Part shown: piece after piece, positions 10,853 to 46,650 of the stretch
Position numbering within the stretch: position 1 is the first letter of the stretch
Layout: every line of letters starts with the position of its first letter
Virus record (IMG/VR): IMGVR_UViG_3300005323_000007
Source: a virus
Length of the DNA: 49,491 nt
Reading direction: 5' to 3' (one strand)
Notes under the pieces: generated by a model
The model's database searches: none
What the model was told of the DNA's origin: nothing
The model's input: the letters and a program-made list of their open reading frames with translations, nothing else
Position numbers and translations under genes: made by a program

Positions 10853-10924
10853 CTAGGGCGGCTGGATTCGAACCAGCGATAACCAGAACCAAAATCTGGC
10901 GGCTTACCACTTGCCTACACCCTA
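10853..10924 (-). tRNA. tRNA-Gln (anticodon UUG)
   Basis: Hand-folded 72-nt cloverleaf. Acceptor UAGGGUG/CGCCCUA with U1-A72 and G73; 3-bp D stem with loop AAGUGGUAA; anticodon stem CCAGA/UCUGG with loop UUUUGGU; T arm GCUGG-UUCGAAU-CCAGC. No CCA is encoded. Confidence 0.85.
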
Positions 10925-11030: not shown

Positions 11031-11102
11031 TGGAGTTAATGGGATTTGAACCCATAACCTTTGGCTTGCAATGCCAACGCTCTACCATTGCGCTATAACC
11101 CC
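11031..11102 (-). tRNA. tRNA-Ala (anticodon UGC)
   Basis: Hand-folded 72-nt cloverleaf. Acceptor GGGGUUA/UAACUCC with the G3:U70 Ala identity pair and A73; anticodon stem UUGGC/GCCAA with loop AUUGCAA; T arm AUGGG-UUCAAAU-CCCAU. Confidence 0.85.
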
Positions 11103-17304: not shown

Positions 17305-17639
17305 TGATGAAAAAAGAGTGGGACGAGTACCGCGCAAAAGACGAGGCGACACCGCGAAAAAAAGTCGTCAAAAACGTCGAAGAAGCGGAATGGTTCTGCA
17401 AGGGCGGAAACTGGAAAAGCACCAAGGTGGCCATATTTGTACAGAGCTATAACCACGCCTCCGCCTGTATCCGGCGTGGAGGGCAGAGCCGCGTCATCCA
17501 GGTGTCGGCTGATACGATGCGCTGGTCGCCGATGGAAACCGTGCGCGAACGCTTAGGCCTCGATCTGATCCAGGGCCTTTATCATACCGAGGAGGAGGCC
17601 CGCGCCGCTGGATGGGATGGCCCCATGACCAAGGGATAG
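17301..17639 (+). CDS. Hypothetical early protein (paralogous motif WSPMETVRERLGLD)
   Basis: ATGA overlap with the upstream stop. Start trimmed to 17301. Confidence 0.5.
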   Translation: MMMKKEWDEYRAKDEATPRKKVVKNVEEAEWFCKGGNWKSTKVAIFVQSYNHASACIRRGGQSRVIQVSADTMRWSPMETVRERLGLDLIQGLYHTEEEARAAGWDGPMTKG

Positions 17640-17694
17640 TAAACGCTTGTGTAGTAGTTATGATGATAAATCGTAAAAATAATAATTATAATCA

Positions 17695-17723
17695 TTGACA
17701 TAATGTCATAACGGGTGTATATT
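17695..17723 (+). promoter_or_regulatory. Near-consensus sigma70 promoter with a palindrome over the -35 element
   Basis: TTGACA, a 17-nt spacer, then TATATT. The -35 element is part of TTGACATAATGTCA. Confidence 0.55.
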
Positions 17724-17756
17724 GATAATAGAGAGATTGAGAGAGGAGATAAAGAG

Positions 17757-17960
17757 ATGACAGCACTAGAGCAGATACAGAGCACACTTCACCGCGATGG
17801 TATGGTGACGGTATCTACTCACCTGAGATGTACACAGTATCTAGGTGCAAAATATGAGCACTGGTTTAGCGATGATGCGCGCGGCGATCTGTATGTACAG
17901 TCTGGAGCCAAACGCGTCTGTATATCGTTTTGTCAGATTAAGTTGTATCAAAAGCGGTAG
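17757..17960 (+). CDS. Hypothetical protein
   Basis: Start trimmed to MTALEQ, preceded by GAGAGGAG. Confidence 0.45.
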   Translation: MTALEQIQSTLHRDGMVTVSTHLRCTQYLGAKYEHWFSDDARGDLYVQSGAKRVCISFCQIKLYQKR

Positions 17961-18033
17961 AGAGCGCGGGCGACGCAGGGCGCGTTAAACCGGAGGCCGA
18001 GTCCAAACCCTCGGCAGGTATGGAGGTAGAGAG

Positions 18034-18270
18034 ATGAAATTGGCGATTGGAGTAAAAACGGTCGATTTGGGTGGTGGTGAGTATTTGCATTTTTGGTATG
18101 CAAATAACGCAGGTAGGGGGTGCAGTAACTGCACAATAATCAGATCCAGAAGCCCTGCCCGTGCAATTTGTGCAAAAAAACAGGCAGATGTCATCTCACA
18201 GGTGAAAACGAGTGCATGGAAGGGCCACGTAAATTTCAGCCAGCCGACAAAAACCGCACTTGGCCTATAG
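18034..18270 (+). CDS. Hypothetical protein (uncertain; the region is also hairpin-rich)
   Basis: 78-aa ORF with GGAGG 8 nt upstream of the ATG. No recognisable motifs. Confidence 0.35.
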   Translation: MKLAIGVKTVDLGGGEYLHFWYANNAGRGCSNCTIIRSRSPARAICAKKQADVISQVKTSAWKGHVNFSQPTKTALGL

Positions 18271-18299
18271 CTAAGGCGATGGGGCCCGCGCAAGCGGGC

Positions 18300-18355
18300 T
18301 CTGGTCTGGCGCTCGATCGCGCCACTGATGAGACCCCGCGAGGGTCGAAACCAGA
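18300..18355 (+). ncRNA. Type III hammerhead ribozyme
   Basis: Reads UCUGGU-C|UGGCGC-UCGAUC-GCGCCA-CUGAUGA-GACCC-CGCGA-GGGUC-GAA-ACCAGA. The full invariant core and GUC cleavage triplet are present. Stems I, II and III are 6, 5 and 6 bp, with stem III open-ended. Confidence 0.85.
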
Positions 18356-18385
18356 AGAGAACTTCAGAAAAATGGAGGTCGTAAG

Positions 18386-18628
18386 ATGAAACGCAGATTT
18401 ATGGCATGGTGCCGTGGAAGTTGTAATAGTTTAAGAGTTACGCGCTCGGCAAGCGACGCGGTTGATGCTGGCGTTGAGGATATTGATTTTGGTATCAACC
18501 TGATGATGTCGGGCGATTCCGTCGCGGTATATCTCAACTCCGGGCGGAAAGGCGACCTGAATCATCTGCTATTGGGCGAGTATTCCCGCGCCGATCTTGT
18601 AAGGATGACGGCGGAGGCCAGAAGATGA
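18386..18628 (+). CDS. Hypothetical protein
   Basis: 80-aa ORF with GGAGG 7 nt upstream. It is the first cistron downstream of the hammerhead. Confidence 0.5.
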   Translation: MKRRFMAWCRGSCNSLRVTRSASDAVDAGVEDIDFGINLMMSGDSVAVYLNSGRKGDLNHLLLGEYSRADLVRMTAEARR

Positions 18629-18664
18629 GATTCGCTACAGCAAGCCAACAATTGGTATGCATAA

Positions 18665-18710
18665 GGCGCGAGCGGTGGTTCTTGTGGCGGTTCAACCCCG
18701 CCACGCGCCA
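18665..18710 (+). ncRNA. tRNA-like acceptor/T-arm minihelix
   Basis: GGCGCG...CGCGCC stem stacked on (G)UGGCGG-UUCAACC-CCGCCA(C), with a T-loop-like UUCAACC, then an unpaired A. Only 14 nt occupy the place of the D and anticodon arms. Confidence 0.5.
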
Positions 18711-18745
18711 GCTTCAGAAAATTTGATATTGCAAGGGAGGTTGAA

Positions 18746-18964
18746 ATGAAAAAGGCAGAACGCGACTCGTTCGCTCGGGCTCTTATGGAAAACGCAATTA
18801 AAGGCATTTGTCGGGGGCTGGAAAATGCCCCTGAAACATGGGATGGTGTAGAAATACGTCAATACTGCATGGATTATGTAAAAAACAATGTTGTTTTCTG
18901 CAAAATGCCAAAAAGTAGGAAGGCCGCATATAATAATACTATTTTAATCAATAATCTTTTATAA
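18746..18964 (+). CDS. Hypothetical protein
   Basis: 72-aa ORF with RBS GGGAGG. Confidence 0.5.
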   Translation: MKKAERDSFARALMENAIKGICRGLENAPETWDGVEIRQYCMDYVKNNVVFCKMPKSRKAAYNNTILINNLL

Positions 18965-18975
18965 GAAGGTAAATC

Positions 18976-19179
18976 ATGATTGATTCTTTGATCGCGTGTT
19001 TCAAAAAGGAAATGACGGTTGCCAAGGCGATTCGCACCACGGCAAAGGAAAAGGGCGAGTGGCCGAGCGCCCGGGATGTGCTTCAGGCGCAAAAAGCATT
19101 GAAGAAAGATGATGACGAAGAGGACGACGAGGACAGTGAAGGTCAGCGGATGATCGACCGAGAAATAGCGAGTTACTGA
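18976..19179 (+). CDS. Hypothetical protein with an acidic tract
   Basis: 67-aa ORF with RBS GAAGG. Contains a DDDEEDDEDSE tract. Confidence 0.45.
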   Translation: MIDSLIACFKKEMTVAKAIRTTAKEKGEWPSARDVLQAQKALKKDDDEEDDEDSEGQRMIDREIASY

Positions 19180-19224
19180 AATGGGGCGTTGCCTTAGTGG
19201 AATATCAGTCGTGGATGTATGACA

Positions 19225-19344
19225 ATGAAGTTGAAAGACAAGCGCACGAAAGCGCAGGCTGAGAAAGCGATCAAGAGGGCGATCCGCAAATTCGGCGACC
19301 GCGACGGTTCACTCAAGAAAAAGCTGAAGGAGGTTGAGGGATGA
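19225..19344 (+). CDS. Small basic ORF (39 aa), below the track threshold
   Basis: Hand translation gives MKLKDKRTKAQAEKAIKRAIRKFGDRDGSLKKKLKEVEG. It has an ATGA overlap with the next gene. Confidence 0.3.
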   Translation: MKLKDKRTKAQAEKAIKRAIRKFGDRDGSLKKKLKEVEG

Positions 19345-19610
19345 ATCTCAATGAGTATCTTGCAACGATTCTACAGTGGCCTGGTCTCACAAAAGAAGAG
19401 GCGGCTGAGGCTCAAGCAAAAATCAAAAGACTTTATCAGGGCCGGAATCTAAAAAACAGAAAAGTGTATTTTACCTATCCTTTTGAAGAAAATAGGCCAA
19501 ATTTATCGCGACTTTTTATTTTTGCTCAAACAAAAGAAGGACATTCATATTGGTATCATCTTTATGAGGCGGAATGCGAATTTTATAGATTAAAGGAGGT
19601 ATCTGGATGA
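19341..19610 (+). CDS. Hypothetical protein
   Basis: 89-aa ORF with RBS GGAGG. Confidence 0.5.
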   Translation: MNLNEYLATILQWPGLTKEEAAEAQAKIKRLYQGRNLKNRKVYFTYPFEENRPNLSRLFIFAQTKEGHSYWYHLYEAECEFYRLKEVSG

Positions 19611-19660
19611 AATAATCGGTCGATTCAAGATTTTGAAAGGGTCGCGCTGAGGCGCGACCC

Positions 19661-19711
19661 CGGTCGTGGCGTGATGCTCGCCGCCTGAATGAGTCCAGCA
19701 GGACGAAACCG
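19661..19711 (+). ncRNA. Hammerhead-like (type III topology) element with a 1-nt core insertion
   Basis: Reads CGGU-C|GUGGCG-UGAUGCU-CGCCGC-CUGAAUGA-GUCC-AGCA-GGAC-GAA-ACCG. The layout matches 18300..18355, but the core is CUGAAUGA rather than CUGAUGA and stem III is only 4 bp. Confidence 0.5.
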
Positions 19712-19730
19712 AAAAATGGGAGGATAAGGA

Positions 19731-19961
19731 ATGACGAATATCCCCACCTCAGTTCATTCGCTCTCGCAACCGGTGCGAAGGTACGATATTCAGGTATCGT
19801 TCTATGGTCGAAGGCCCGTCGCGGAATTCGAAGATATCAAAGCGAATTGTGCGGAGGATGCGAGAGCATGGGCACGGAAAATCTGTGAAGAATATTACTC
19901 ATACCCTATCAAAAACATTATGGCAATCGAAGTCAAAACGATAAGGAGAATGCCATGCTAG
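19731..19961 (+). CDS. Hypothetical protein
   Basis: 76-aa ORF with GGGAGG 7 nt upstream. It is the first cistron after the second hammerhead-like element. Confidence 0.5.
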   Translation: MTNIPTSVHSLSQPVRRYDIQVSFYGRRPVAEFEDIKANCAEDARAWARKICEEYYSYPIKNIMAIEVKTIRRMPC

Positions 19962-20053
19962 ACGATGATGATGACGATGATCCAGAGCCGCAGCCTGAGT
20001 TACACGACGAAACGTACTATAATATTCTGTACGGCGTTAGTAGGAGCGATTGA
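19955..20053 (+). CDS. Small acidic ORF (32 aa), below the track threshold
   Basis: Begins MLDDDDDDDPEPQPELHDETYYNILYGVSRSD. RBS AAGGAG. Its stop abuts the next ATG (tgaATG). Confidence 0.3.
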   Translation: MLDDDDDDDPEPQPELHDETYYNILYGVSRSD

Positions 20054-20242
20054 ATGCCAAGCGAACGGATAATCGAAACAAGACAGCACGGCAATGATAC
20101 GCTTGAATGCGTGGTTCCGTCCGGCGGAGATCCTGTGGGGTGTCCGAAATGCTTTTTCTTCGTGGGGCTTGATGGGTATTGCGCCCCTTCTTCTCACGCA
20201 TGTGAGAAATATTTGCGGTCATATTGGAGGTTGAAGAGATGA
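20054..20242 (+). CDS. Hypothetical Cys-rich protein
   Basis: 62-aa ORF with an ATGA overlap onto the clamp gene. Confidence 0.4.
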   Translation: MPSERIIETRQHGNDTLECVVPSGGDPVGCPKCFFFVGLDGYCAPSSHACEKYLRSYWRLKR

Positions 20243-21255
20243 TGTTATCAAAGGAGTTCCTGAAAATCGCGCATAAGATTGCGCCCAGAAAAGATGGTCT
20301 GTCGGTTTTTGAGTACATCGAAAGCGACGGAACGCAACTCAAGGTTTCCAACGGTGCAGAATTTTTAATCTGCAAGCAGCCGATGGAAGAGAAAGGTCTT
20401 TTCAATTTTAAACAGAGCGAAGTTCTGGGGAAACTGTCATCGCCATGGGGTGGTAAATTTGAAAAGGCCTATGAAAAAGAACTTCCCGAAACGCCTCACT
20501 ATGATGATTTGTCTTTCGTCGCGCTCAGTGATCGTCAGAAAAAGAAATTGCTTGAGGCTTCGGGATTCGTTTCGCAGGACGAGACGAGGTTCTTCATGAA
20601 TGGCGTTTATTTCAGTCCTGAAGATAAAATCGTCGCAACGGATGGGCGCATAATGTACGTCGCTTCAGGTTTCGAGGGCCTGTCGTCGAACGTCATCGTC
20701 AGAATGACGCCGGCGCTTCAGGTCATCCTCAGTGAAAAATGTATCGTCGAAATGGAATCAAGGACATTCGATGATGCTACATATGGGACGATATTCTTCA
20801 AATTTGAAATAGGCAATATTCAGTACGTCTACGGGAATCAGATAATCGACGGAAAATTCCCGAACTGGAAAAAGGTTATCCCTGAGACTTACGCAAAACA
20901 GACGGGACTCCCCGACAGGAACGCATGGAAAGAAATTTTCAAGAAAGCGCGTGCGCTCAAGTTGTACTCCGTGTGCTTCAGAAAAATATCTGATGAGCAT
21001 GTAGAAGTTTTTATGGAATCGGAGAATCTTGAGCCTATCGAATCTCTGGGGGTTCTTAAATGGAATTTATGGTGCGATGCCACAGGGAGAATTGAGTTGC
21101 GACTCGCCACGAAGTATTTCGACAAAATTCTTGCCATAGAGGGGATCAATGAAATGGCATATAGCGATTTCAGAAAATGTCTTCGCTTCAACGCAGATGA
21201 CGGGACGTTCGCGCTCGTGATGCCCTGCACGCCGCGTGATACAATAAGGAGATGA
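20239..21255 (+). CDS. dnaN: DNA polymerase III beta sliding clamp-like protein
   Basis: QDETRFFMNGVYF...VATDGRIMYV and DGKFPNWKKVIP match hallmark DnaN motifs. Start trimmed to the ATG at 20239, after GGAGG. Confidence 0.7.
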   Translation: MMLSKEFLKIAHKIAPRKDGLSVFEYIESDGTQLKVSNGAEFLICKQPMEEKGLFNFKQSEVLGKLSSPWGGKFEKAYEKELPETPHYDDLSFVALSDRQKKKLLEASGFVSQDETRFFMNGVYFSPEDKIVATDGRIMYVASGFEGLSSNVIVRMTPALQVILSEKCIVEMESRTFDDATYGTIFFKFEIGNIQYVYGNQIIDGKFPNWKKVIPETYAKQTGLPDRNAWKEIFKKARALKLYSVCFRKISDEHVEVFMESENLEPIESLGVLKWNLWCDATGRIELRLATKYFDKILAIEGINEMAYSDFRKCLRFNADDGTFALVMPCTPRDTIRR

Positions 21256-46271: not shown

Positions 46272-46650
46272 GATAGAATCCTTCTATTTTAAGCCTAAGT
46301 TGCCGTATCCCGTCCATATTCTCTATAATGGCTCCCGTCGCTTTTGATGTATGCAGAATATCACCATTTCCGATGTAAAGTCCAGTATGGCAGAGTTTCC
46401 CATGAAGACGAATAAGCGCGATATCTCCTGGTTTTGGGATATCTACTCTTTTAGGTTCAATCTCATGCAATCCTGTTTGTACCATATTTTCTGAAGAAGC
46501 ATATTCTGTATCGGGATACCCCGCAAGTGATGGGGCATCCTTGTCGAATTGTTCTTTCAATGCAAGGCGAACTAGCCCCCAGCAATCGCAACCGTTTCTG
46601 TCTCTACCATTATCCTTGAATGGTATGCCGACATATTCGTTGAAATTCAT
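46264..46650 (-). CDS. NlpC/P60-family tail peptidase (gpK-like, without an MPN domain)
   Basis: NGCDCWGLV (catalytic Cys) and KLCHTGLYIGNGDILHTS (His) motifs. Confidence 0.7.
   Translation of the reverse strand: MNFNEYVGIPFKDNGRDRNGCDCWGLVRLALKEQFDKDAPSLAGYPDTEYASSENMVQTGLHEIEPKRVDIPKPGDIALIRLHGKLCHTGLYIGNGDILHTSKATGAIIENMDGIRQLRLKIEGFYRV

Follow-up and report, generated by a model that had tools for sequence, protein, structure and literature searches.

A tRNA top-half-like fold between two early genes of an uncultured tailed phage, a putative processing signal for host RNase P

Genes and RNA elements of the early operon

The window, the whole 49,491-nt stretch of DNA that was analysed (IMGVR_UViG_3300005323_000007), belongs to an uncultured tailed phage encoding a large terminase, a tail tube protein, helicases, an SbcC-like protein, an SSB and a clamp-like protein. 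None of the ORFs tested was seen to encode an RNA ligase, a CCA-adding enzyme or an integrase. A near-consensus promoter (17695..17723, + strand) heads an operon of small genes, with no + strand terminator-like site before 20400. Between two of these genes lies a fold of 46 bases resembling the top half of a tRNA (18665-18710, + strand). The cistron upstream of it (18386..18628, +) encodes 80 aa, and two relatives of the phage, L002 and L022, carry an unrelated LPD29 gene at that place. The cistron downstream (18746..18964, +; SD GGGAGG) encodes a 72-aa orphan protein and does not stand downstream of the element in L022.

The preliminary description had located the element in the slot between a stop codon and the RBS of the next gene, and the annotation agreed with this, the element lying on the sense strand between cistrons in a terminator-free operon of small genes. 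Its likening of this slot to that of hammerhead ribozymes also held, as the other long gaps of the operon were found to contain a hammerhead and a hammerhead variant. The former is a type III hammerhead in the gap preceding the 80-aa cistron (18299..18356, +), matched by the full-length RF00008 model with 37.9 bits (E 2.5e-7); the variant lies in a + strand operon gap at about 19639-19711. Two gaps upstream of the element, a twister-P5-like element (17956..18013, +) scored a weak 22.9 bits. Bona fide copies of twister-P5, above the gathering score of 37.6, are present in a corresponding intercistronic gap of L022 (772-827; 52.4 bits) and directly upstream of an LPD29 homologue in L028 (4916-4969; 48.9 bits). 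The copy in the window reads AAACCC where the consensus has AAGCCC, and judging from this and its low score it may be diverged or inactive.

A hairpin directly 5' of the hammerhead (18284-18299 in the window, about 1060-1075 in L022) keeps the stem GCCCGC/GCGGGC, with the tetraloop GCAA in the window and UUCG in L022, both of which are stable. Once the hammerhead has cleaved itself, the mRNA upstream would carry this hairpin at its 3' terminus. Elsewhere in the window, two tRNA genes are located on the - strand, tRNA-Gln-UUG (10853-10924) and tRNA-Ala-UGC (11031-11102), neither of which encodes CCA according to the alignments. The tRNA-Ala has the G3-U70 identity pair.

A shared string, CUUCAGAAAA, had been reported to follow both the element and the first hammerhead. 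The 10-mer CTTCAGAAAA does occur after the element, at 18712, and after the hammerhead, at 18362, but the link drawn from it failed. The 10-mer was found twice more in the window, at 20976 inside the clamp-like gene and at 46487, and L022 does not keep it 3' of the element; it therefore does not belong to the element.

Fold of the element and its T-loop motif

The acceptor-like stem is formed by the 5' strand GGCGCG (18665..18670) and the 3' strand CGCGCC (18704..18709), a pairing that the preliminary description had proposed and that was recovered both from the sequence and by folding. Next to it stands a T-arm-like hairpin of 6-7 bp (18684..18704), recognised from its sequence, motif and folding, in which TGGCGG (18685-18690) and CCGCCA (18698-18703) form the stem and UUCAACC (18691-18697) the loop, as had been described; the optional pair G18684-C18704 extends this hairpin to 7 bp. 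The two stems adjoin without a gap on their 3' side, which enables the helices to stack into 12 bp, all 12 pairs being Watson-Crick, in agreement with the earlier estimate of about 12 stacked pairs. The 14 nt that had been described as standing in for the D and anticodon arms were found at 18671-18684, between the two 5' strands, and the single unpaired A said to follow the stem is A18710, at the discriminator position. The next base is G in all copies, and no CCA is encoded.

Folding of the 46-mer with ViennaRNA gave a minimum free energy (MFE) of -26.0 kcal/mol (z = -2.8), and the MFE structure made up 0.94 of the ensemble, which demonstrated one dominant fold. This fold is a three-way junction consisting of a 5-bp acceptor stem, a 4-bp hairpin GAGC-GGUG-GUUC (18670..18681, +) that replaces the D and anticodon arms, and a 7-bp T arm. 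With G18670 taken into the small hairpin, the stack is divided into 5+7 pairs as opposed to the 6+6 of the preliminary description, both adding up to 12 bp.

The loop had been called T-loop-like, and together with its closing pairs, GGTTCAACCCC, it fits the tRNA T-arm consensus GGTTCRANYCC. The T-loop consensus residues G53, U54, U55, C56, R57, A58 and C61 are all present in the element, as is the 12-bp acceptor/T stack. The motif occurs three times in the window, in the two true tRNAs and in the element, against a chance expectation of 0.43; it is the motif by which Forner et al. 2007 searched for t-elements (PMC1920247). A descriptor combining the T-loop consensus, a G-C closing pair, contiguous 3' strands, a stack of at least 12 pairs and a middle of at most 30 nt matched 0.05-0.08 times per dinucleotide-shuffled window with G-U pairs permitted, and in 0 of 2000 shuffled windows with Watson-Crick pairs only.

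The element is not a tRNA gene, as had been stated earlier: just 14 nt separate the acceptor and T stems, and neither ARAGORN nor Rfam gave a call there. Across the whole window, ARAGORN reported only the tRNA-Gln and tRNA-Ala at 10.8-11.1 kb. The relaxed covariance search suggested in the preliminary description likewise returned nothing, no Rfam family being found at the element with gathering thresholds, nor with a limit of E<=10 applied to 10 kb or to 116 nt; in the 116-nt search the tRNA model RF00005 did not give even a partial match. Several other identities were also rejected. The tRNA-like domain of a tmRNA was dismissed since ARAGORN reports no tmRNA and the element is contiguous and 46 nt long, and a self-cleaving ribozyme since no ribozyme matched at the element in the 116-nt Rfam search (E<=10). 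An intrinsic terminator is contradicted by the lack of a U tract, the stem being followed by AGCUUCAG, and by the absence of any + strand terminator-like site in 17500-20400. An attP site or integrase-linked tRNA fragment does not agree with the presence of the 5' acceptor strand, nor with the lack of an integrase among the ORFs tested. The T arms of the phage's own tRNA-Ala and tRNA-Gln both differ from that of the element, and an origin from either gene was rejected on this ground. In the window, a 33-aa ORF with a good SD (18625-18726) spans the element and overlaps the upstream stop. A small protein from this ORF was rejected because the upstream sequence is unrelated in L002 and L022, where the TAG of the LPD29 gene abuts the element. 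Only ORFs in different frames cross the element in L022, and no reading frame is conserved there.

Distribution of the element and the homology island

The phage lineage was seen in five metagenome samples only: ERZ27247097 (k141_474787, the window), 3300027419, SRR5248198, ERR14064752 and SRR16297627. The copies of the region in JGI 3300027419 (L001) and SRR5248198 (L153) are identical to the window. The order in ERR14064752 (L002) is hammerhead, LPD29 gene (142 aa, PF18847), element and 72-aa gene, with 100% identity to the window from A18664 on and unrelated sequence 5' of it. The order in SRR16297627 (L022) is twister-P5, 69-aa gene, hammerhead, LPD29, element and 39-aa gene; here homology to the window ends two bases past the 3' stem, and the 72-aa and 67-aa genes are absent. 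Three arrangements are thus represented, in which the element stands between the 80-aa and 72-aa ORFs (window), between LPD29 and the 72-aa ORF (L002), or between LPD29 and the 39-aa ORF (L022).

In the blastn comparison of L022 with the window, positions 1584-1631 corresponded to 18664-18711 with 97.9% identity as an isolated island. This 48-nt island (18664..18711, +) is the whole module shared with the relatives, flanked on both sides by unrelated sequence in blastn and in the alignments, and across the arrangements the borders of homology fall within 1-2 nt of the stems. The element is on the sense strand and intercistronic in the window, L002 and L022, with a single copy per genome. That it has no constant neighbour gene, upstream or downstream, speaks against a leader or operator tied to a particular gene and in favour of a generic, self-contained unit. 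The only substitution among all copies is G18672A in L022, which changes a G-U to an A-U pair in the small hairpin. The acceptor-like and T-arm-like stems are identical in all copies. In both relatives carrying LPD29, the TAG of this gene overlaps the element (505-507 in L002, 1583-1585 in L022), its G being the first G of GGCGCG.

Further islands shared by L022 and the window were found between unrelated genes, namely the hammerhead cassette (18283-18388, 88.7%) and the promoter region (17635-17743, 99%). The first operon gene of the window (17757-17960) has a 49% identical homologue elsewhere in L022 (1978-2196). From these alignments, the early genes look like shuffled cassettes between conserved linkers. 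The relocated gene of L022 is preceded by a 176-nt gap (1802-1977) containing a 10-bp GC hairpin (GGGCGCG...CGCGCCC region) and the string GGCGATGGGCGCG, which the 5' flank of the twister has in common; no Rfam family matched in this gap.

Searches beyond the five samples gave no further copy. None was found in IMG/VR with the 25-mer, the bulge plus T-loop, or the exact P1 pattern; none in the JGI metagenome contigs with the 21-mer T arm; and none in GTDB genomes with two exact patterns, where two other matches were judged to be chance. A looser metagenome pattern, GGCGCG-N-GGTTCAACC-N6-CGCGCC, returned at least 119 loci, which were rejected as homologues and attributed to chance in GC-rich coding DNA, with 0-3 T-stem pairs. 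Two loci with 5-6 T-stem pairs also look like chance, and the flank of one of them (L102) fits the coding-sequence group. Comparison with cultured phages (INPHARED, blastn) yielded nothing meaningful, and neither did the search of IMG/VR for related loci with three proteins. Exact-protein matches were confined to the five samples. The clamp-like protein (338 aa) has one relative at 96% and others at about 30% on short contigs. Among the relatives L002 and L022 and the identical copies, none has a ribozyme in exactly the slot of the element.

As a check at the level of the class, phages with the hammerhead variant (8 loci in 4 phages) were scanned for minihelices. No intergenic minihelix was found, the single match (L161) lying inside a 594-aa ORF. 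The 17-nt T-arm scan picked out two other tRNA-like folds in unrelated viral contigs, which, having been selected by their T arm, serve as illustrations and not as independent statistics. One of them (L003, IMGVR_UViG_3300037504_000266; 449-517, -) is a non-tRNA with a tRNA-like fold between small ORFs that begins 2 nt past a TGA stop. It consists of a 5-bp acceptor stem, the hairpin CGCCGG-GGAA-CCGGCG and a 7-bp T arm with the 17-nt core of the element, followed by CA; it has the same architecture as the element and scored 25.9 bits (model R1). Another, present in three related viral contigs (L015, 6933-6998, +; also L004 and L018), is a degenerate cloverleaf between 65-aa and 87-aa ORFs with an 8-9-bp acceptor stem GCGGCGGC, two tiny hairpins and the T arm of the element, followed by CAAATC. 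Neither the L003 fold nor the cloverleaf of L004, L015 and L018 was called by ARAGORN or Rfam. A locus in L159 (5239-5311, -) was called as a tRNA by Rfam with 43 bits and was not reported by ARAGORN.

Putative processing and alternative explanations

RNase P, RNase Z and the CCA-adding enzyme need no more than an acceptor/T-arm minihelix to recognise their substrate, and McClain, Guerrier-Takada and Altman reportedly showed in 1987 that RNase P cleaves such minihelices. We consider it an even chance that the element works like a t-element, as a signal for host RNase P, and possibly also for RNase Z, to process the polycistronic early mRNA. Host RNase P would read the 12-bp acceptor/T-arm stack with its canonical T-loop and cut between A18664 and G18665 (+1), by which the upstream and downstream cistrons would be parted. 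RNase Z, or an equivalent 3' trimming enzyme, could cut after A18710, a possibility raised by the discriminator-like A without CCA. This second cut would release a minihelix of about 46 nt and leave a downstream mRNA beginning at G18711. As both tRNA genes of the phage are without CCA, the phage already relies on host 3' trimming and CCA addition. Through such processing the element would provide a host-enzyme route to what the neighbouring hammerhead and twister achieve by self-cleavage, the ends being a 5'-phosphate and a 3'-OH at the element versus a 5'-OH and a 2',3'-cyclic phosphate at the ribozymes.

Processing is favoured by the dominant fold, the T-loop and 12-bp stack, which no shuffled window reproduced with Watson-Crick pairs, and the sense-strand place between stop codon and RBS, together with the behaviour as a module in three arrangements, the lack of a conserved reading frame and the self-cleaving ribozymes in other gaps. 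The tRNA-like minihelix of the preliminary description stood as regards geometry, T-loop, intercistronic place and self-contained nature in the relatives, its recognition by RNase P, RNase Z or the CCA-adding enzyme being putative. Several features count against processing. The 3' RCCA, the partner of the P15 loop in bacterial RNase P RNA, is replaced by AGCUU in the window and AGUGA in L022 after the stem, and the lack of an encoded 3' CCA would weaken binding to bacterial type-A RNase P. The base at -1 is A and not the preferred U, and the stack is split 6+6 or 5+7, not 7+5. The cut predicted for L002 and L022 lands within the stop codon of the upstream gene (UA|G), and the result would be a truncated stop codon and a non-stop mRNA; that bacterial polyadenylation might complete this stop codon is pure speculation. 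The rarity of the lineage, the single substitution, the lack of a partial match to the Rfam tRNA model and the lack of a ribozyme in the element's slot also argue against processing.

Among the alternatives, it is unlikely, yet deserves real weight, that the element is an unprocessed structural hairpin that would stabilise or insulate the mRNA, block exonucleases or the scanning of RNase E, or uncouple translation, or that it is a relic whose T-loop likeness was left by a tRNA gene stripped of its middle. The great stability of the fold (-26 kcal/mol) agrees with this, as do the plain GC hairpins in other gaps, such as GCCCGC-GCAA-GCGGGC before the hammerhead and one after LPD29 in L028. The 3' half of the element also resembles the 3' end of real phage tRNAs, among them the tRNA-Val(GAC) of L012, whose T arm is the same and whose acceptor strand reads CGCGCC, and as all copies are nearly identical, purifying selection on tRNA-specific features is at most putative. 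A plain stabiliser, however, could do without a canonical T-loop, a stack of exactly 12 pairs and an unpaired A; the coincidence is rare enough to be missing from all 2000 shuffles, and the neighbours are cleavage elements, not hairpins alone. Descent from a tRNA would in any case be compatible with a present function. A role as recombination linker has been proposed for the PeSL cassettes of T4-type phages and for lambdoid boundary sequences. That the element is likewise a linker conserved at the DNA level, through which homologous recombination between phages shuffles early-gene cassettes and whose RNA fold is secondary, seems improbable. Like the hammerhead cassette and the promoter region, the element is a short island between unrelated genes, and gene order differs between the window and L022, where the 49% homologue of the first operon gene has been relocated; but such islands are equally expected if functional RNA elements stay while genes turn over. 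Such a linker would leave the tRNA-like features and the sense-strand bias unexplained, and neither recombinase nor integrase was found among the ORFs tested. A linker of this kind and a processing signal are compatible with each other.

We regard as quite improbable a tRNA mimic acting in trans, in which the excised minihelix of about 46 nt, possibly CCA-tailed, would target, by binding or titration, a host or defence protein that recognises the top half of a tRNA, for instance a toxin modifying the CCA end or acceptor stem, a synthetase or EF-Tu. The layout would allow a discrete small RNA to be released whose ends are tRNA-like, the early operon is rich in small orphan genes of a kind that often counter host defences, and the P4 CI RNA and the P1/P7 C4 RNA are said to be small regulatory phage RNAs matured by RNase P. 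Against such a mimic, no partner could be identified, inspection recognised no identity elements in the acceptor stem (there is no G3-U70, for example), and the element has one copy per genome. A functionless chance inverted repeat is disfavoured and highly improbable. The scan covered very many windows, and about 5% of shuffled windows match when G-U pairs are permitted; against this stand the failure of any of 2000 shuffles to match with Watson-Crick pairs only and the retention of the element with sharp borders in three gene contexts.

The closest analogues of a processing signal at this site are the t-elements of plant mitochondria, reportedly described by Hanic-Joyce in 1990. Those with the GGTTCRANYCC T arm guide RNase P and RNase Z to the cuts by which mRNA ends arise (PMC1920247). 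The phage element shares with them this T-arm motif, an acceptor-like closing stem, a non-canonical or missing D/anticodon part, and a sense-strand position at a cistron boundary in an mRNA precursor. The cuts are shown or inferred for t-elements, whereas processing of the phage element is only predicted. At 46 nt, and with a single 4-bp hairpin as its middle part, the phage element is also smaller, and with no homology and its place in a bacteriophage operon it is an analogue of the t-elements and not a member of the class. The minihelices that serve as model substrates for RNase P, RNase Z and the CCA-adding enzyme have in common with it the 12-bp coaxial stack, the T-loop cap, the single-stranded 5' leader and the unpaired 3' base, but they are designed molecules; the phage element is natural, has no 3' CCA, bears a 14-nt insert at the junction and divides its pairs 6+6 or 5+7 instead of 7+5.

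Other phage transcripts offer tRNA-like acceptor features to host RNase P, as reportedly found for the P4 CI (Forti, 1995), P1/P7 C4 (Hartmann, 1995) and phi80 M3 (Bothwell, 1976) RNAs. These are antisense or immunity regulators with known targets, in contrast to the intercistronic element, for which no target is evident. In animal mitochondria, where tRNA punctuation was reportedly described by Ojala et al. in 1981, tRNA-shaped units between cistrons also set the mRNA ends, and the UA|G cut predicted in L002 and L022 recalls the incomplete stop codons of mitochondrial mRNAs; the mitochondrial units, however, are complete functional tRNAs, whereas the phage element corresponds to a top half. 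Twister ribozymes in phage and prophage gene arrays are said to have been reported by Roth et al. in 2014. Gene arrays flanked by hammerheads are known from phages and prophages (Perreault et al. 2011, PMC3088659). As in such arrays, the element occupies an intercistronic slot immediately before an RBS, and it belongs to one operon with the ribozymes of the window; the hammerhead cassette is, like the element, a conserved island between variable genes. The element differs in having no ribozyme core, so that its cutting would require a host enzyme.

The principle of tRNA-like RNase P/RNase Z signals in mRNAs is already known from t-elements, mitochondrial punctuation and the RNase P-matured phage RNAs. 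Our literature search found no paper on tRNA top-half mimics punctuating phage operons beside ribozymes. As a tentative and rather doubtful generalization, the early operons of phages may be composed of swappable gene cassettes and interchangeable RNA punctuation, either ribozymes or top-half mimics that borrow host RNase P and RNase Z, with these units doubling as the joints of cassette exchange between phages. What hammerhead and twister ribozymes do in bacteria and phages has been an open question since 2011-2014. A predicted cleavage signal for host enzymes, in the same operon and the same type of slot as the ribozymes and with the same behaviour as an island, points to a shared job, which would be the cutting of the multi-gene message between cistrons. 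This idea is open to simple RNase P and RNase Z assays and the mapping of RNA ends. If the generalization above is true, the hammerhead and twister ribozymes of bacteria and phages would simply split polycistronic mRNAs into separate units.
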